Source of the DNA: Aeromonadaceae bacterium
Lineage (GTDB): Bacteria > Pseudomonadota > Gammaproteobacteria > Enterobacterales > Aeromonadaceae
DNA length: 45,540 nt
Direction: 5' to 3'
Assembly (NCBI GenBank): GCA_051645725.1
Contig: JBOFBS010000172.1
Location: forward strand, 1 to 45,540
Numbering within the stretch: the stretch's first letter is position 1; the number at the start of each line of letters is the position of its first letter. This document shows positions 1,578 to 23,551 of the stretch, piece by piece. The translations under genes were made by a program, and so were the position numbers. Below the pieces are notes generated by a model that made no database searches, was not told the origin of the DNA, and saw nothing but the letters and a program-made list of their open reading frames with translations.

Positions 1578-4500
1578 TTATTGTTCTGCCAATGCCTTGT
1601 GTGGAATGGACTCGTCAAACTCCTCCAGTGGCTTATGGTTCTCACCCAGATAGGTGTAGATGACCGGCAGCACAAAGAGAGTGAAGAGGGTACCGATGGA
1701 GAGACCGGCCACTATGACCAGACCGATACCAAAACGGCTGACGGCACCGGCCCCACTGGCCCCCATCAGAGGGATCAGACCCGCCACCATGGCCGCTGTG
1801 GTCATCAGGATGGGTCGCAGACGGATGCGGGTGGCGTGCTTCACCGCCTCCATCTTGGAGAGTCCCCGGTGCAGCTGCTCTTCCTTGGTCACTTCACAGA
1901 TAAGGATACCGTGTTTAGTGATGAGACCGACTAGGGTAATGAGACCTACCTGAGTGTAGATGTTCATGGTCGAGAGGCCCCAGGCCATGGCGATCAAGGC
2001 ACCACAAATGGCCAGCGGCACGGAGACCAGGATCACCAGAGGGTCACGAATACTCTCAAACTGGGAGGCCAATACCAGGAAGATGACAAACAGTGCCAGA
2101 GCGAAGGTCCCCAGCAAGGCGTTCCCTTCCGTCACATATTGACGCGCTTCCCCCATGTAGCTGTGTTGATAGCCCAGCGGTAGTTGAGGGGTGATCTCTT
2201 TTTCAAAGAAGTTCACCGCATCACCCATGGTGACCCCAGGAGTAGGAACAACCCCTATGGTGGCTGAGTTCAACTGACTGAAGGTCGGGAGTGAGCGAGG
2301 CTCGGTGACCAGTTCGATATTCACCAGGTTACCAAGAGGTACCGCCGTACCATCGGCTGCACGCACATAGTAACGCTTGATGGATTCTGGATTCAGGCGG
2401 TATTTGCGCTCCACCTGAGGTATCACCTCATAGCTTCGACCGTTCAAATCGATGCGGTTGACATAGCCATCACTCATCATGGTCGCGAGGGTGACCCCGA
2501 TATCCTGCATGGTAATGCCATAGGCACCTGCCTTGTCCCTGTCTACCGTGATGCGCATGGTGCCGGAGTCATAGGCCAGATCCATTTCCGAATAGATGAA
2601 CTGACGGTTGGCTTTCACCTTCTTCAACACTTCGTCCGCTACCTGGAACAGGCTCTCGAAGTTGTTTGGCGTGGTGATCACATACTGCAGTGGCAGGCCA
2701 CTACCGGCACCCGGGAGTTCCGGGAACTGGAAGGAGCTGACCGCCATCTCGGGAATGTTCTGCATATCCTTGTTCGTGCGTTCCATCACCTGCTTGAGGG
2801 GCGGGCGCTGGCTCCACGTTTTCATAACGGCGATCCCCATACCCTGGTTTGAGTTAGGGATACCGGCAAACGACAGGGAGGTTGCCATAGCCGGATCCTT
2901 GCTCAAGCGGGTAGTGATCTCGCTCATGCTGTTTTCGATATAGTCCAGGTTGGCAGTATTAGGTGCCTTCGCCATCATCATGTAGGCGCCCTTGTCCTCT
3001 GCCGGGGCCAGTTCTGCCGGAATAAACTTGAACAGAATGGGCAACGAGGCAAAGACAATGAAAGCAAAGGCGATGACAACGGGTCTGTGCTCCATGACCG
3101 CATCCAGTGCCCGTGAGTAGGCATTGGTTACGCGCTCGAAGGTGTGCTCCACTCCGCGTTCGAAGGCATTCGGATTAACGTGAGCCTTGAGCATTTTGGA
3201 ACACATCATGGGCGACAGGGTCAGAGCGATAACGCCAGAGACGAATACGGCCCCCGCCAGTGTCAGAGCAAACTCTTTGAACAGGGAGCCAGTGATGCCG
3301 CCCATCAAAGCGATTGGCGCGTAAACAGCCGCCAGTGTGATGGTCATGGAGATAACCGGCAGGGCAATTTCCCGGGTGCCGATAATCGCGGCACGGAAGG
3401 GATCTTCCCCAGCCTTGATATGGCGGTCAACGTTCTCAACCACCACTATGGCGTCATCGACCACCAGACCTATCGCCAAGACCATGGCAAGCAGGGTCAT
3501 CAGATTGATGGTAAAGCCAAACATCTGCATCAACATCACCACGCCAATGAGCGAGAGTGGGATGGTGATGATGGGGATCACAACGGCGCGGAACGACCCC
3601 AGGAACAGGGTGATAACAACCAGTACGATTAACCCCGCCTCGGCTATGGTCTTCACTACCTCATCGATAGATTCGTTAATGGCCTCGGTTGAGTCGTAAA
3701 GCATCTCCATCTTGATGGTAGAGGGGAGGTTCCGTTGCAGCTCAGGCATCATCTTGACGACATCGGCAGCAATGTCTAGCGGGTTGGCCGTGGGGGACGG
3801 GTCCAGACCCACCACTACCGCTTCCTTACCATTGGCCATGGCTCGGTAGACGTCATGGTTTTTCTCCAGACTCACCTTGGCTATGTCCCGCAGTCGGATG
3901 ACGGCACCACTGCGGCTGGCGACCACCAGGGTCTCCAGATCGGCCACATTATCCACTTGTGTCTTGGCATCGGCGTTATAGAGCATGAAGTAGCCGATTG
4001 CCTGGCCTGGAGAGGATTGGTAGTTGTTGGCCTGCAAGACCGACATGATGTCGCTGGCGGTCAGGTTGTAAGCTGCCATGCGCTCAGGATCCAGCCAGAT
4101 ACGCAGTGCAAACTCGGTTCCCCCATAGAGGTTAACCTTGGCGACCCCGCCCACAGTAAAGAGCTGGGGTTTGATTACCCGCTCCAGGTAGTCGGTGATC
4201 TGGGAGGCATTCAACTCATCACTGGAGAAGGAGATGTACATGATGGAGGTGCTGGAGCCAGTGGACATATCCAGGCTGGGATCCTCTGACTCTTTGGGCA
4301 ACTGGGAGCGTACCGAGTTGACCTTGGCCAGAACATCCGAAAGTGCAGCATTGGGGTCCGTGTTGAGTTTCATGTTCACCGTGATGGTGGATGAACCCAA
4401 CTGACTCTTTGAGGTCATGTAGTCTATGTTGTCGGCCTGGGCGATAGCCTGTTCCAGTGGCTGGGTAATAAAGCCCTGGATCAGGTTGGCGCTGGCACCG

Positions 4501-4655
4501 TAGTAACTGGTCGTTACCGTGATCACTGTATTGGTGATCTTCGGGTACTCCCGCACTTGCATTCCCTTCAGCGCCTGCAGACCGAGTAGAACGATCAGCA
4601 GACTGATAGAGAGTGCCAATATGGGGCGACGGATGAAAATATCAGTAAATTTCAT
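1578..4655 (-). CDS. RND multidrug efflux permease (AcrB family, Vibrio VexB/VmeD-like)
   Basis: 1025 aa; MKFTDIFIRRP start; GLVVDDAIVVVEN, KHGILI and RLRPILMTT RND motifs. Confidence 0.95.
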   Translation of the reverse strand: MKFTDIFIRRPILALSISLLIVLLGLQALKGMQVREYPKITNTVITVTTSYYGASANLIQGFITQPLEQAIAQADNIDYMTSKSQLGSSTITVNMKLNTDPNAALSDVLAKVNSVRSQLPKESEDPSLDMSTGSSTSIMYISFSSDELNASQITDYLERVIKPQLFTVGGVAKVNLYGGTEFALRIWLDPERMAAYNLTASDIMSVLQANNYQSSPGQAIGYFMLYNADAKTQVDNVADLETLVVASRSGAVIRLRDIAKVSLEKNHDVYRAMANGKEAVVVGLDPSPTANPLDIAADVVKMMPELQRNLPSTIKMEMLYDSTEAINESIDEVVKTIAEAGLIVLVVITLFLGSFRAVVIPIITIPLSLIGVVMLMQMFGFTINLMTLLAMVLAIGLVVDDAIVVVENVDRHIKAGEDPFRAAIIGTREIALPVISMTITLAAVYAPIALMGGITGSLFKEFALTLAGAVFVSGVIALTLSPMMCSKMLKAHVNPNAFERGVEHTFERVTNAYSRALDAVMEHRPVVIAFAFIVFASLPILFKFIPAELAPAEDKGAYMMMAKAPNTANLDYIENSMSEITTRLSKDPAMATSLSFAGIPNSNQGMGIAVMKTWSQRPPLKQVMERTNKDMQNIPEMAVSSFQFPELPGAGSGLPLQYVITTPNNFESLFQVADEVLKKVKANRQFIYSEMDLAYDSGTMRITVDRDKAGAYGITMQDIGVTLATMMSDGYVNRIDLNGRSYEVIPQVERKYRLNPESIKRYYVRAADGTAVPLGNLVNIELVTEPRSLPTFSQLNSATIGVVPTPGVTMGDAVNFFEKEITPQLPLGYQHSYMGEARQYVTEGNALLGTFALALFVIFLVLASQFESIRDPLVILVSVPLAICGALIAMAWGLSTMNIYTQVGLITLVGLITKHGILICEVTKEEQLHRGLSKMEAVKHATRIRLRPILMTTAAMVAGLIPLMGASGAGAVSRFGIGLVIVAGLSIGTLFTLFVLPVIYTYLGENHKPLEEFDESIPHKALAEQ

Positions 4656-4666
4656 GGTCTGCTCCG

Positions 4667-5812
4667 TTACAGCATCGGGCTCTTGGCTGGTTTGGTCAGA
4701 AGTGAATCCTCGATGATCTTCACATGACTGCCATTAGAGAGGCGCACCTGCCCGGCCGTAACGATACGGTCACCGGCTTTGATGCCATCGAGTATATGGG
4801 CAACCTCTTCTTTGCGTTCACCCACCTTGACCACGACCTGATTGGCAACCAAAACTGGCTTGCCTTCGGCGTCAACCAGAGGTTGTCCTTTATCATCCTG
4901 GCCCTCGGTGATGACAAATACTGTCTGACCATAGAGCGTAAAGTTGATGGCGGTTTGTGGAATCGCAATCTGGGCGGGAATGACCGGCAGTTGGACCTGG
5001 ACTTTGGCAAACATGCCGGAGCGTAACATGCCATCTGAATTTGGAATGGCGGCCTGAACTTGAACGACACCAGACTGGGCGCTCACCGCAGGTTCGATGG
5101 CACTGACCGTTCCCTGGAAGGGTTGCTCAGGGTAGGCATCGACATAAATGTGCAGCGCTTGGCCAACCTTCAACTTGGAAATATCGGTCTGGGGAATGGT
5201 GAAGCGGATCTTCATCACGCTGGTATCTTCGAGGCGAACCATGTTGGAGCCTGCCTGGAGATATTGCCCCAGATAGACATTGCGGATACCGACCTGACCG
5301 GAGAAGGGGGCCTTGATATACATGCGATCTATGGTGGCTTGCAGGGATTCAATCTGACCAGCCAGTTCCAGATAGTTGGCTTCAGCGTTATCCACATCAC
5401 CTCTGGAGACGTTGCCCTTGGTAAACAGGCTGCGCATCCGATCCAGATTGGCTTTGGTCGCGGGCATCTTGCCTTGAGCGGCCTTGAGATTGGCCTCTTC
5501 TACAGATGCGTCCAGATTGAGCAGCAGATCACCACGCTTAACCTGCTGTCCTGACTCAAACTTGATGGATTGGACCTTGCCGGCCGTTTCATTGCTGATA
5601 TCCAGCCCCTGATTAGGCTCGATAAAGCCGATGGCTTCGATGGTTGGACCCCAGTCGCTGGCTTTTGCTTCCTGCACTGATACCGGGATAGTCGGAATGG
5701 GCATGTTGGCAAAATACTGTGCCATCATGTGGTTTTTAAACAGGTTAAACCCAATCACACTGCCGAAGATCAATAATGCGATCAGCAGCATTACGGCTGT
5801 CCACTTTTTCAT
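4667..5812 (-). CDS. RND periplasmic adaptor (membrane fusion protein, VexA/AcrA-like)
   Basis: N-terminal TM segment, lipoyl motifs GKVQSIKFESGQQVKRGDLL and IKAPFSG, adjacent to the RND gene. Confidence 0.95.
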   Translation of the reverse strand: MKKWTAVMLLIALLIFGSVIGFNLFKNHMMAQYFANMPIPTIPVSVQEAKASDWGPTIEAIGFIEPNQGLDISNETAGKVQSIKFESGQQVKRGDLLLNLDASVEEANLKAAQGKMPATKANLDRMRSLFTKGNVSRGDVDNAEANYLELAGQIESLQATIDRMYIKAPFSGQVGIRNVYLGQYLQAGSNMVRLEDTSVMKIRFTIPQTDISKLKVGQALHIYVDAYPEQPFQGTVSAIEPAVSAQSGVVQVQAAIPNSDGMLRSGMFAKVQVQLPVIPAQIAIPQTAINFTLYGQTVFVITEGQDDKGQPLVDAEGKPVLVANQVVVKVGERKEEVAHILDGIKAGDRIVTAGQVRLSNGSHVKIIEDSLLTKPAKSPML

Positions 5813-6396
5813 TCTTTGCTCCCAGTTTGATCCAAGTTGTCGGCCAGGATCGCTTTCCAGCTCGCCGCAGCCATTTGCTCTTTTAACGTATCGGTTAAAT
5901 CAACATCATAAAATCTGTGCTTGTGCATGACGCACTGCACCGTGGCCAGGCTGAGTGCGCCCAGCAAGTGAGAGGGCAGATCTAAAAATAGCCCCTGCTG
6001 ACTCCCTGTGGCGAAAAAGTCGTCGAGAGGCTGCCACTGCTCGTCAGTCCACGCCTTTTCTTCTTCGGTGAAAAAGGGTGAGCGCTCATAAAGCTCCTTG
6101 AACAGGATGACATTACTATTACCAGATATGGCGGATGCGGCATTGAGCCACATGCGACGGTAACTGGGGTAACCAATCTGCGCCAGGTTGACGCCCTCGA
6201 ACAGTCTGACCAGCATCTCTTCTACGGCCTTGCGGTAAATGGCGCGGATCAGCTCATCCTTGCCATGAAAGTAGCGGTAGAGGGAACCGGTCGCCATTCC
6301 CACATGATTGGCTATCATTTGCACCGAGGTGCCATGAAATCCCTGCTCGATGAAGAGTGACATGGCGGTTTGCATGATCTGTTCACGCTTGCTCAT
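5809..6396 (-). CDS. TetR/AcrR family regulator (VexR-like)
   Basis: MSKREQIMQTAMSLFIEQGFHGTSVQMIA...GSLYRYF HTH. Start moved to ATG 6396; stop overlaps the MFP start. Confidence 0.92.
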   Translation of the reverse strand: MSKREQIMQTAMSLFIEQGFHGTSVQMIANHVGMATGSLYRYFHGKDELIRAIYRKAVEEMLVRLFEGVNLAQIGYPSYRRMWLNAASAISGNSNVILFKELYERSPFFTEEEKAWTDEQWQPLDDFFATGSQQGLFLDLPSHLLGALSLATVQCVMHKHRFYDVDLTDTLKEQMAAASWKAILADNLDQTGSKE

Positions 6397-6450
6397 GGTA
6401 ATAGGGGTTGCCTTGATGGAGAGTAAACGAAAGTGCATTACCTGAATGAT

Positions 6451-6472
6451 AGTGAATGAACGTTCATTCACT
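6451..6472. promoter_or_regulatory. Probable TetR operator
   Basis: Perfect 22-bp palindrome AGTGAATGAACGTTCATTCACT about 55 bp upstream of the tetR start. Confidence 0.8.
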
Positions 6473-6630
6473 GCCCCCATTTTAGAAAAGTTGTAGCAAT
6501 AGTCAAATGACTATATGCATAAAGCATCGCCACGTCAGGCGGTGCGGCGAGATGTGACCTGCCGTAAATGTATGCTTTTTAATCTTTTGAGCGAAAAAAC
6601 AAGCGAACAAACTTTTTTTAAGGAAAATGC

Positions 6631-6668
6631 TGGACAAGGTGATCCCTGATTCGTACTATTCCCACCCG
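6631..6668 (+). promoter_or_regulatory. Sigma70 stable-RNA promoter of the tRNA operon
   Basis: TGGACA-17 bp-TACTAT followed by C-rich discriminator TCCCACCCG; A/T tracts upstream. Confidence 0.7.
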
Positions 6669-6680
6669 TTCCAATGACGA

Positions 6681-6757
<77 letters not shown>

Positions 6758-6810
6758 TGTATGGTTCGCGGTGACAATTCACTACGGGAACAGATTGGAC
6801 AGACGGTCGT

Positions 6811-6887
6811 GGTGGCTGTAGCTCAGTTGGTAGAGTCCAGGATTGTGATTCCTGTTGTCGTGGGTTCGAACCCCATCAGCCACCCCA
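6811..6887 (+). tRNA. hisR: tRNA-His(GTG), includes G-1
   Basis: GGTGGCTG start, TT-GTG-AT anticodon loop, GTTCGAAC, CCA end. Confidence 0.97.
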
Positions 6888-6916
6888 AATAGCTCAAGGT
6901 AATATAAAGTTTCAGT

Positions 6917-7001
6917 GCGAAGGTGGCGGAATTGGTAGACGCGCTAGCTTCAGGTGTTAGTGCCTTCGGGTGTGAGGGTTCGAGTCCCTCCTTTCGCACC
7001 A
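6917..7001 (+). tRNA. leuT: tRNA-Leu(CAG)
   Basis: GCGAAGG acceptor, TT-CAG-GT loop, long variable arm, CCA end. Confidence 0.97.
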
Positions 7002-7044
7002 CTATTTAACCAACTCGGTTTAGGCCGAATGGTAGCAAGTTTCT

Positions 7045-7121
<77 letters not shown>

Positions 7122-7125
7122 CTTT

Positions 7126-7159
7126 AAAAAGCCCCGATAGCGATATCGGGGCTTTTTTT
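7126..7159 (+). terminator. Intrinsic terminator of the tRNA operon
   Basis: AAAAAGCCCCGATA-gcga-TATCGGGGCTTTTTTT. Confidence 0.92.
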
Positions 7160-7365
7160 CATTTCGGCACTATCGTGCTCACTCCCGCTCTAATCTGGCC
7201 GCTCTTTGGCTTCCATACGCCTGTCACTCTTTGCAACGAGCCCTTCAGTTTGGAAAAACGGCTTGCCCCCGGGATTGGCCTTACATACCATCGAGCTGAT
7301 GGTTTTTTGCCCAGATGCCTTATGAATTCGTCAGGCAGCTGGTCTCCACACTCTGGGGGTGGGGC

Positions 7366-8010
7366 ATGTCAGAGTTACTAACGGCAGAAGAGTTAGCCAT
7401 GTTGCTGGATGACGATGTCGAGATGGCAGCGCCAACGGCTCATCGTGGTGGCGCGCGTGGAGCGGCTCACCCCCAATATATGGAACTCATTTCTAGCCTG
7501 GCACTGCAGGAGTTGCTTCCTCTGTTGGGGCAGGCTGATCATCTGGTGCTCAATGCCGAGTACAAACAACGTCGTTTTGCTTTTTCTCTCTCTTTTATCG
7601 AGGATAGTGCCGGTAATTTACTACCCAGGCTCAGCCCCCCTCTCATTCAGGAGGTGGGTGATTCCCAACCTCGTGAGTGGCGAATGCCACACCCAGAGGA
7701 TGCCTGGTTACTGGATGGTTCCGGAGAGCCTTTGCCTTGGCAGATCAGTAATCTATCCGCTTCGGGTTTGCTGCTGGATGGCCAGGAGGAGATGCCGGAG
7801 CCAGGAACGCCGTTCCGGGCATTACTGCGTTGCCAGGGGGATTGGAAGATCCGGCTGCGAGGCCAGGTGATCCGCCGCTTTGTCAACGCGGAGGGGGGGC
7901 ACTCCTGTGCCATCCAGTTACGGTTGAAGCGGCAGGCCCAGCAGCGACTCCAGCACTATCTCTACCATAAACATTGTGAACAGGGAAAACTCATGCCCCT
8001 TGATGAGTGA
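7366..8010 (+). CDS. PilZ-domain protein
   Basis: C-terminal PREWR...ISNLSASG...IRLRGQVIR...LQHYLY PilZ pattern; ATG 7366 follows a G-rich RBS. Confidence 0.75.
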   Translation: MSELLTAEELAMLLDDDVEMAAPTAHRGGARGAAHPQYMELISSLALQELLPLLGQADHLVLNAEYKQRRFAFSLSFIEDSAGNLLPRLSPPLIQEVGDSQPREWRMPHPEDAWLLDGSGEPLPWQISNLSASGLLLDGQEEMPEPGTPFRALLRCQGDWKIRLRGQVIRRFVNAEGGHSCAIQLRLKRQAQQRLQHYLYHKHCEQGKLMPLDE

Positions 8011-21189: not shown

Positions 21190-21750
21190 TTAGAACTCGT
21201 TAGAGAGCGCCTTGTAGCCTTTGACCAAGTCGATATTGGTGTGGGCCACATCTTCGGAGAACTCGGTGGCATCGGCGCTGACACGCGGGATCTGGTTCAG
21301 ATCTGTCTTGGGGCCAATGCGCGTGGTGGAGGGGACATAGAAACCTGAGGGGAGGTCACAGCCATCCACAACGGCGTTATGACGCACCACGCACCCTTCA
21401 CCTATGCGGCAGTTGAAGAGCACGCTGTTGAAGCCGAGGAAGACCCGGTTTCCCACTTCACAGGGGCCGTGGACTATGGAACGGTGAGCGATGGAGGTGA
21501 ATTCGCCTATCACTACGGGCGCACCCGATTTGGAGTGGATGACCACACCATCCTGTATGTTGGAGTTGGCGCCTATGATGATGGGCTCCATGTCACCCTG
21601 CTCATCCACCTCATCGGCGCGGATGACAGCATAGGGGCCGACGAAGACATTCTCCTTGATGATCACCTTGCCGCAGATGATGGCTGTCTTGTCGATATAG
21701 GCGGATTCATCGATGACCGGCAGGTGGCCGGAGGGGTTTTTACGGATCAT
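21190..21750 (-). CDS. Gamma-class carbonic anhydrase (carbonate dehydratase)
   Basis: Hexapeptide repeats, IRADE, NIQDGVVIH and IAHRSIVHG (three metal-binding His); start MIRKNP at 21750. Confidence 0.9.
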   Translation of the reverse strand: MIRKNPSGHLPVIDESAYIDKTAIICGKVIIKENVFVGPYAVIRADEVDEQGDMEPIIIGANSNIQDGVVIHSKSGAPVVIGEFTSIAHRSIVHGPCEVGNRVFLGFNSVLFNCRIGEGCVVRHNAVVDGCDLPSGFYVPSTTRIGPKTDLNQIPRVSADATEFSEDVAHTNIDLVKGYKALSNEF

Positions 21751-21908
21751 GCTGCATCCTGTCGTTGGCTGATTCGATAATGAGAGGTGAAACAGGAGAG
21801 ATGCCATCTCTCTCCCATTTCACTCCAGGCGACCCAGCTTACGCCAAAAAAGTGTGATGAAGGAACCCTTTACTGGTCTGTCCCCTTCGCAAGCAGGGTA
21901 TTGAGATA

Positions 21909-23045
21909 TCAGGTCGGGTCATCTGATCCGGGTGGGTTGAAGTGCATATAGAGCTGTTCAGCCAGGGTAGGCTCAGGGCGACTCAATGCCTCCTGAAACA
22001 GGGCGGCTATCTGCTCCCTGGCGGCAGCCCGGACGATGAACACCAGGGTGGTTTGGGCCTTGCCCTCTGGCCATTCACCCAGGCTGGTGAGCGGATAGAG
22101 CTGGCCATGAACCCCGTGGATCACCAGGGGTTGGCTTTCCCCCTCAAGCTGAAGTATCCCCTTCAGACGCAGCAGGGAGTCTCCATAGTTGGCCTGCACC
22201 GCTTCGACGGCGGCGATCAATCTGGCAGCCGGCAGAGGGGTGCCAAAGCGCAGGGTGAAGCTTGCCACATCCGCATGGCTGCTGGGGGCGGTGGCTTGCG
22301 CGCCAATCGCCTGCTGGCTTGGTGCGGCCGGGCGCAGGGGGGAGGCCACCCCCAGTCTGGGGGCTTCTGAACGCAACCAGGCCAAGAGGGCGCGCACGTT
22401 CTTACCCGCCTCGGCGCTGTAGGGGCCAATCTTCTCCAGAACGTTAGGGTTCAATGCGCCCTGCTGCACCACATGCTGGGAGGCGGATGGGTTGAGCTGG
22501 CTCAGACGGAGTTGGAGCTCTGCGACTTGCTCGGCCGTGATGAGATCGCTCTTGCTGATCACCAGCAAGTCGGCCAGGGCTATCTGTTTGACGGCTTCAT
22601 ACTGGCGAGCCAGTTGCTGCGTGATGTGCACCCCATCGATGAGTGTGACTATGCCATCGAAGCGGTAACGCTGGGCGATAAAGTCATCCTGACGCAGGGT
22701 GAAGAGCACGGGGGCCGGATCGGCAAGCCCTGTGGTCTCTATGATGAGGCGGCGGAAGGGTTTGATCTCTTTACGCAGCGCCTTCATAAAGAGCTCCTGC
22801 AGTGTACTGGCCAAGGAGCCCTGTACCGAGCAGCAGATACAGCCGGAGTCCAGCAGGGTCACCTGTTCATCTACCTGACGCACCAGTTGGTGGTCCAACC
22901 CCACGGCGCCAAACTCATTGATCAGAATGGCGCAATCGGCCAGCTCAGGTTGTTGCACCCAGTGATTGAGCAGGGTCGTTTTGCCGCTGCCGAGAAAGCC
23001 TGTGATGATGGTGACGGGAATGCGGGTATCTTGGGGTGACGACAT
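21909..23045 (-). CDS. COG0523/CobW family G3E GTPase metallochaperone
   Basis: GFLGSGKTT, NEFG, GCICC, ETTGLADP, SKSD and C-terminal LLRLKG...HGVHG. Confidence 0.92.
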   Translation of the reverse strand: MSSPQDTRIPVTIITGFLGSGKTTLLNHWVQQPELADCAILINEFGAVGLDHQLVRQVDEQVTLLDSGCICCSVQGSLASTLQELFMKALRKEIKPFRRLIIETTGLADPAPVLFTLRQDDFIAQRYRFDGIVTLIDGVHITQQLARQYEAVKQIALADLLVISKSDLITAEQVAELQLRLSQLNPSASQHVVQQGALNPNVLEKIGPYSAEAGKNVRALLAWLRSEAPRLGVASPLRPAAPSQQAIGAQATAPSSHADVASFTLRFGTPLPAARLIAAVEAVQANYGDSLLRLKGILQLEGESQPLVIHGVHGQLYPLTSLGEWPEGKAQTTLVFIVRAAAREQIAALFQEALSRPEPTLAEQLYMHFNPPGSDDPT

Positions 23046-23122
23046 GGCAAAGGCCCAGTAAGAAGCGAGTAGGCTATTGTGCCTGTGGGTCGATGAAGTG
23101 CAAGTCTGGTGCGAGGGGAGAT

Positions 23123-23155
23123 AAAAACAAACAAGCCGCATCTTGTGCGGCTTGT
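23123..23155 (-). terminator. Intrinsic terminator downstream of the small ORF
   Basis: ACAAGCCGCA-5 nt-TGCGGCTTGT perfect 10-bp stem followed on the minus strand by TTGTTTTT. Confidence 0.8.
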
Positions 23156-23185
23156 CAGGGGAGGCTGGTTCTGGCCAGCTTGGGC

Positions 23186-23287
23186 TTAACGCTCATAGCG
23201 GAAGAAGTATTGGCGAGTGGCGGGTGCGTAGTGCTCATCTTGCTTGCCAGTCAGCAGGTTGGCCAGGTTCTTGTAGATGTTTTTCAT
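23186..23287 (-). CDS. Unannotated 33-aa small protein MKNIYKNLANLLTGKQDEHYAPATRQYFFRYER
   Basis: ATG preceded by GAGGTGA; highly-expressed-type codons (AAC, ATC, CTG, TAC, TTC); own promoter and terminator. Confidence 0.7.
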   Translation of the reverse strand: MKNIYKNLANLLTGKQDEHYAPATRQYFFRYER

Positions 23288-23306
23288 ATCTCACCTCATG
23301 GTGTTT

Positions 23307-23355
23307 TGTGATCTTCGTCACCTTCGATAGTAAGGTTTATGTGAACTCGATCAAG
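23307..23355 (-). promoter_or_regulatory. Sigma70 promoter overlapped by two CRP-like sites
   Basis: Minus strand TTGATC-16 bp-TACTAT (23354-23327); TGTGA-N6-TCACC at 23307-23322 and TGTGA-N6-TCAAG at 23340-23355. Confidence 0.65.
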
Positions 23356-23551
23356 TTCTATTTTTTTGAAAACGCTTGATTTTGTGATGATTGCGTTTTC
23401 ATTGTTACTGGTCGGATGAGATTGGCGAGTTGTAACCGATTGCAAGCGGGTGCCTTGGTAGAGGGGCGGCTTGCGGCAAGGTGCAAGAGCCGACGCTATG
23501 GTTCATATTGTAGAGCCGGGGGGCGTCCACCACCATGCGGGGAGCCGACGC

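Follow-up and report, generated by a model that had tools for sequence, protein, structure and literature searches.

How many small RNAs also carry a protein, and what do such proteins do? One preprint counts about ten known dual-function RNAs (10.64898/2026.08.28.747715), and targets have been assigned to few small proteins. The closest precedents for the locus described here are SpfP, which binds CRP, AzuC, which binds GlpD, and VcdP, which binds GltA, all of them reported to come from CRP-repressed RNAs (PMC12612679; PMC8672173). In the published account, vcdRP lies between vc2278 and vc2279 and comprises a 29-aa ORF and a four-C seed within 306 nt (PMC8672173). Here we describe a 33-codon gene from an Aeromonadaceae genome. 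It is genuine and belongs to a small-protein family that is linked to CRP and has no name yet. Its product would be the fourth small protein under predicted CRP repression, unrelated in sequence to the three already described, and the family is near-universal in Aeromonas, with a promoter logic kept across four lineages.

The window is the whole stretch of DNA that was analyzed, 45,540 nt of contig JBOFBS010000172.1. Promoter, two CRP-type sites, RBS, ORF, C-run, and terminator were all located on its minus strand:

23388..23401, minus strand: operator 1, a 14-bp LacI/GalR-type palindrome (TGAAAACG-N-WTCA) centered ~75 bp upstream of the predicted start
23367..23380, minus strand: operator 2, a weaker second palindrome seen in the sequence 21 bp from operator 1
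23349..23354, minus strand: predicted −35 hexamer TTGATC
23340..23355, minus strand: CRP-type site 1, an 8/10 consensus match over the −35 and spacer
23327..23332, minus strand: predicted −10 hexamer TACTAT, 16 nt from the −35, with a predicted start near 23320
23307..23322, minus strand: CRP-type site 2, a 9/10 match over the predicted start point, which is a repressing position
23290..23297, minus strand: RBS GAGGTGAG, recognized by sequence and partly paired in a small predicted hairpin
23186..23287, minus strand: 33-codon ORF with a predicted N-terminal amphipathic helix, a variable linker, and a conserved C-terminal motif (from conservation and AlphaFold)
23189..23224, minus strand: codons of the motif P22–R33 (P-A-T-R-x-Y-x-F-x-Y-x-R)
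23158..23164, minus strand: CCUCCCC run (CCTCCCC in the DNA), predicted single-stranded, unconserved in the closest orthologues
23122..23156, minus strand: intrinsic terminator with an 11-pair stem (23156–23130), the same stem type as in orthologues
21909..23045, minus strand: downstream CobW/COG0523 GTPase gene, separated from the unit by a KDPG aldolase gene at most orthologous loci

Made from the letters alone, the initial annotation had described a self-contained unit encoding a small protein, and conservation supports that description. Its TTGATC-16-TACTAT promoter was located as claimed (23354–23349 and 23332–23327), and a single −35/−10/CRP pattern is shared by 26 of 31 unit promoters in Pseudaeromonas. 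The two CRP sites, the strong RBS, and the CCUCCCC directly before the terminator were likewise where it had put them, the stem having 11 pairs instead of the 10 bp it gave. It had not mentioned the palindromic operators (23401–23388 and 23380–23367) or six further family matches in the same genome. The promoter scores 8/12 against the sigma-70 consensus and is absent from the scan output because the scanner threshold is 9/12. CRP-type site 1 also matches 8/10 of what we take to be the FNR consensus, and FNR could be an alternative reader of it. GNAT and OGFr-domain genes flank the unit upstream. The downstream genes (21190–23045) are the CobW/COG0523 GTPase and then a gamma-carbonic-anhydrase-like gene, a pairing familiar from zinc-starvation operons; the KDPG aldolase gene of most orthologous loci is missing here.

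The layout is that of VcdRP—a small ORF, then a 3′ region and terminator, with a CRP site at the promoter—and members in Aeromonas and in a fourth lineage, family f24, share its similarly long 3′ region, with a C6 run in four of the six f24 members. This copy differs in its length (~200 nt vs. 306 nt) and unconserved C-run, and the family is multicopy. The initial annotation recognized no sequence homology to VcdRP, and rightly so: homology to VcdP was rejected, with an hhalign probability of 0.3% (A1 vs. A2) and no VcdP-like profile match in the 11 Pseudaeromonas genomes or in the window's own genome. Synteny through vc2279, which we take to be pepD, was also rejected, because the region upstream of pepD in this genome has no such ORF. 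The VcdP-like genes, placed upstream of pepD and divergent from it, make up a family of their own, whose profile does match in 44 of 46 Aeromonas genomes. Three Vibrio-like genomes carry a VcdP-like unit upstream of pepD, and a matching 29-aa ORF occurs in Aeromonas, where pepD has a gene of the 33-aa type downstream and the VcdP-like ORF upstream. One such ORF (L053:784-870, minus strand) is divergent from pepD and has a GGA-rich leader like the Vibrio-like loci; in many Aeromonas genomes pepD is flanked by two different small-protein genes. Aeromonas is not mentioned in the main text on VcdRP (PMC8672173).

Other described systems share parts of this design. Spot 42/SpfP and AzuCR are CRP-repressed short transcripts whose peptides act on carbon metabolism, and AzuC too is amphipathic, although the excerpted accounts of them do not describe tandem arrays (PMC12612679; PMC8915982). 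The 33-aa family differs from both in having no Rfam, Pfam, or NCBIfam match, and Spot 42 is a separate locus in three of five genomes tested. In the 493-contig assembly of the window's own genome neither an EIIA-Glc family member nor Spot 42 was matched, possibly because of assembly gaps. SgrST has a 5′ small ORF and a 3′ pairing region, and Aeromonas has a divergent homologue, but SgrS adjoins sgrR and has its own 13-nt seed (PMC2760817). No sgrR-like gene was noticed among the gene neighbors of the family loci inspected, by a comparison made without a profile. The arrest peptides SpeFL and TnaC are about 25–35 aa long, with key residues close to the stop, and the C terminus of the 33-aa family presumably resembles, loosely, the aromatic C terminus of SpeFL. 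Unlike these, the family has no NCBIfam or PDB match and no fixed downstream operon, and it occurs in tandem copies. Its predicted regulation would be like that of SpfP, AzuC, or VcdP, and it is a member of none of these systems.

Is the 33-codon frame translated into something that selection preserves? Compared with 10 gap-free copies, pS is 0.59 and pN is 0.21 (pN/pS 0.36 overall), and pN/pS is 0.52 over the N terminus, 0.74 over the linker, and 0.08 over the last 14 codons, with synonymous changes at every motif codon. By this purifying selection the ORF of the initial annotation is real. The core P-[AV]-T-[RK]-x-Y-[FYH]-F-x-Y is shared by 113 distinct peptides of 26–43 aa, in 102 of which the last motif aromatic stands two residues before the peptide end; these counts were made with a pattern in which P, Y, F, and Y/W are fixed, which makes the invariances partly circular, and HMM alignments show the same positions independently. 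(Alignment A3 includes one truncated row and one row without Met.) This C-terminal motif is the sole part common to the four lineages, and an invariant 10-residue motif makes target finding simple. AlphaFold gives the 33-aa peptide a helix at residues 2–13 and no fold elsewhere (mean pLDDT 67), as expected if the foldless remainder were a short linear motif that folds upon a partner. The peptide is hydrophilic overall (mean −0.24) and has no transmembrane stretch; its N-terminal helix has a hydrophobic moment of 0.6.

Databases hold the family without naming it. Neither Pfam nor NCBIfam nor PDB chains (the last two searched at E ≤ 10) gave a match, nor did phages and plasmids, nor the ESM Atlas, searched with one Aeromonas member. 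Rfam covariance models reached a best E of 2.6 in the window region and found only tRNAs at eight related loci. A search of representative proteins yielded 26 matches, of which 25 were short members of the family and the other, a 789-aa protein, was spurious, and family members are labeled “hypothetical” or left nameless. We found no published description of the peptide family within a literature scope that excluded subscription journals and supplements.

Where else does the family occur? The ORF, whose conservation across relatives the initial annotation had named as a check, was found in all 11 genomes of Pseudaeromonas, the genus of the window's own genome (1–7 matches each), and, by profile, in 44 of 46 Aeromonas genomes, one copy each. 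A peptide search of the window's own genome gave seven matches, one cut by a contig end. The profile had no match in four other genera of the same family (0/32, 0/11, 0/1, and 0/1 genomes). Outside it, in family f3, which is Succinivibrionaceae-like and presumably the Succinivibrionaceae, 20 of 70 genomes, from nine of 17 genera, have 2–18 matches per genome, mostly in tandem, and six of eight f24 genomes hold one copy. An order-wide search with a broader profile added no further lineage, with 0/31 in the family that holds the VcdP-like loci; four weak order-level matches proved spurious once their sequences were retrieved. A class-wide sample of 400 gave one match besides the own genome, inside a 456-aa frame. 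In the arrays, the ORF with its own RBS recurs every ~110–180 nt behind a single promoter. Neighbors of family genes vary freely: CobW/Eda, a sugar-binding protein, GcvA/KdsA, PepD, and convergent genes. At C268:11250-12770 of the own genome (L057, L113), three family units with separate promoters lie divergent from gcvA, and in two of them the 3′ module is the long one, with hairpins predicted to exclude each other; Rfam, GcvB included, had no match on L057.

A CRP match of at least 9/10 within 130 nt of the start occurs in 51 of 63 family promoters—a count that includes kin and hence non-independent promoters—as compared with 12 of 1,147 control upstream regions. The site lies over the start point in Pseudaeromonas and Aeromonas and between the −35 and −10 in most f3 promoters and in f24, and either position would be expected to block RNA polymerase. 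In 25 of the 26 patterned Pseudaeromonas promoters the operator 1 palindrome stands 47 bp ahead of the −35, and an operator match of at least 11/14 is found in 30 of 31 Pseudaeromonas, 17 of 17 Aeromonas, and nine of 14 f3 promoters vs. 19 of 1,075 controls; paired operators 20 bp apart also occur in f3. A GalR-like LacI regulator (C140) is the best candidate to read this operator, because its orthologues, 57–74% identical, are present in four of four f3 carriers and are the sole LacI match in one. Cra (FruR) was rejected as its owner: the genome's own Cra-type box is a 12-bp TGAA-N-CG core, and the family operator has an extra A per half-site. The genes flanking that box are, as we take them from sequence, cra-like and fruB-like.

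What might the peptide do? Variable neighbors, arrays with one promoter and many RBSs, and conservation of the motif alone argue for a peptide that acts in trans and is required in large amounts under sugar plenty. Repeated duplication and polycistronic arrays would increase its dosage, which is what a one-to-one binder would call for; among regulators of this kind, recurrent expansion into tandem arrays is uncommon and suggests that binding is limited by dosage. We therefore favor, at somewhat better than an even chance, the reading that the unit makes a CRP-repressed mRNA whose peptide acts in trans by docking its C-terminal motif onto an abundant cytoplasmic protein of carbon metabolism. 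CRP bound over the start point would repress transcription, and the ~200-nt mRNA would likely be made when cAMP-CRP is low, that is, with a preferred sugar present, the C140 regulator possibly acting at the upstream operator. The P-x-T-R-x-Y-x-F-x-Y motif would then likely dock in trans on its carbon-metabolism partner, with the N-terminal helix as an accessory and the RNA of this copy serving mainly as a message.

As to the partner, our guess would be a global carbon regulator first and, after that, an enzyme of glycogen metabolism or lower glycolysis. By analogy with SpfP, there is a small chance that it is CRP itself, which passes its family cut-off in five of five f3 genomes tested, and a slightly smaller one that it is CsrA. 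No gene has a distribution that cleanly matches that of the family: five of five f3 carriers and five of five non-carriers have citrate synthase, CRP, CsrA, and EIIA occur in both groups, and CRP, EIIA, and citrate synthase do not separate them. CsrA profile scores do divide f3 according to carrier genus: the 22 highest belong to the 20 carriers and to two other genomes from a carrier genus. In the non-carrier genera CsrA is markedly more diverged, and that of carriers is diverged too. Since the split is probably a single clade split and the carriers' CsrA has also diverged, the association is a lead only.

Does the RNA itself act? The initial annotation proposed a dual-function RNA, in which the CCUCCCC of this copy would pair, through Hfq, with the G-rich RBSs of sugar-uptake mRNAs in addition to encoding the peptide. 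What has held up is the conserved protein and the CRP site in a position suited to repression; the base-pairing half has not done so for this copy, and we judge the whole proposal unlikely. The C-run, just ahead of the terminator, is predicted to be unpaired (probability 0.92–1.0), and Hfq is present in the own genome and in five of five f3 carriers (each of which has two Hfq-family genes). CCCC is, however, kept in none of six distinct short-form orthologues at the same locus, which leaves the riboregulator half poorly supported here. Of 67 terminal units, 46 have a detectable stem, and only two of these, this copy and one paralogue from its own genome, have at least four C within 25 nt before it. 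The stretch from stop to stem is merely ~30 nt, EIIA-Glc goes unmatched in the assembly (possibly through a gap), and in a target ranking the top energies are just 2–3 kcal/mol better than shuffles, with sugar genes absent among the top. Four PTS/sugar-uptake start regions, which the initial annotation had suggested as targets, rank 1,043–2,887 of 3,010 (with rough start calls). The case is different in longer paralogues, where sequence makes a dual function plausible. Among paralogues in the own genome, C102 has a C-run and C439 retains the long form's AUCCC word, and at three further orthologous loci the 3′ region is longer and C-rich. The long-form copies of Pseudaeromonas have a conserved, C-rich 3′ module of ~90–115 nt in common (with little covariation, at three of 19 pairs), and Aeromonas members have a different conserved, C-rich module of ~130 nt; judged by eye, the Succinivibrionaceae-like arrays have no common 3′ element. 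The family thus probably mixes dual-function and peptide-only forms, this copy being a short one, and with both side by side one could test directly how dual-function RNAs gain or lose a function.

Three further explanations concern the peptide. The fixed distance between motif and stop also fits a cis-acting nascent peptide, whose metabolite-dependent ribosome pause near the stop would determine how the RNA that follows is folded (terminator or 3′ module); when the first 14 nt after the stop of long-form units are blocked, an alternative hairpin is predicted to hide CCCUCCC, its unpaired probability dropping by more than 0.4 in seven of 15. At many loci, however, such a leader would have nothing to regulate, the ORFs being near-identical tandem copies or the genes downstream convergent or unrelated. 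Longer tails also occur on sole copies (L175, L179), and NCBIfam models and PDB chains offer no relative, and so we consider an arrest peptide rather improbable. A peptide that is membrane-active or antagonistic, in the manner of a type I toxin, a leaderless bacteriocin, or a phenol-soluble modulin, and that has been amplified to raise its dose, would account for the amphipathic helix, the aromatic and basic C terminus, and the arrays. We think it very unlikely, given an overall hydrophilic sequence, neighbors without a common transporter, immunity, or modifying gene, the single copy in Aeromonas, and no match in phages and plasmids; the marks of type I toxins and leaderless bacteriocins, a hydrophobic membrane helix or export/immunity genes, are absent. 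Least probable of all is a citrate synthase activator of unrelated sequence that replaces VcdP where it was lost. The 33-aa family has expanded in Pseudaeromonas, where VcdP is unmatched, and citrate synthase accompanies it in the f3 carriers tested, but Aeromonas has both genes (44 of 46 genomes each), and the two profiles show no similarity. A bolder variant of the trans-acting reading, to which we give a low probability, is a peptide counterpart of the CsrB-type sponge: CRP-repressed, dose-amplified in arrays of up to 18 copies per genome, and titrating CsrA or CRP. Its ancestral gene would have been dual-function, with a 3′ anti-Shine-Dalgarno seed hidden while a ribosome stands at the stop codon and otherwise exposed, and short copies would have shed the module.

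Contigs from each of four RNA runs that include Aeromonas cover an Aeromonas unit, although contigs cannot rank expression: one run has a depth of 1,800–7,500 over the ORF and 3′ region vs. ~400 upstream, two are flat, and one is low and patchy. The unit of the window itself was not covered in four metagenome runs. The excerpted text of a LacI regulon survey does not mention Aeromonas (PMC4052901). In the window's own genome the operator also stands near glgC (twice), fbp, pyruvate kinase, lamB, mgsA, and ackA. These outline a candidate regulon under a LacI-family protein, made up of glycogen and central carbon genes that share a cre-like operator, with the regulator at C140:477-1478 (L146) and sites at C12, C190, C285, C197, C330, C264, C244, C93, and C137; it is possibly undescribed. 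From their protein starts we take C93 to be gpmI and C137 to be rpoS. Finally, a 15-bp TGTAAT-N3-ATTACA-like palindrome, presumably the HexR box, lies upstream of f24 members and VcdP-like genes (L013-L019, L175-L179, L099-L101), and similar words occur before and just after the Aeromonas ORF.
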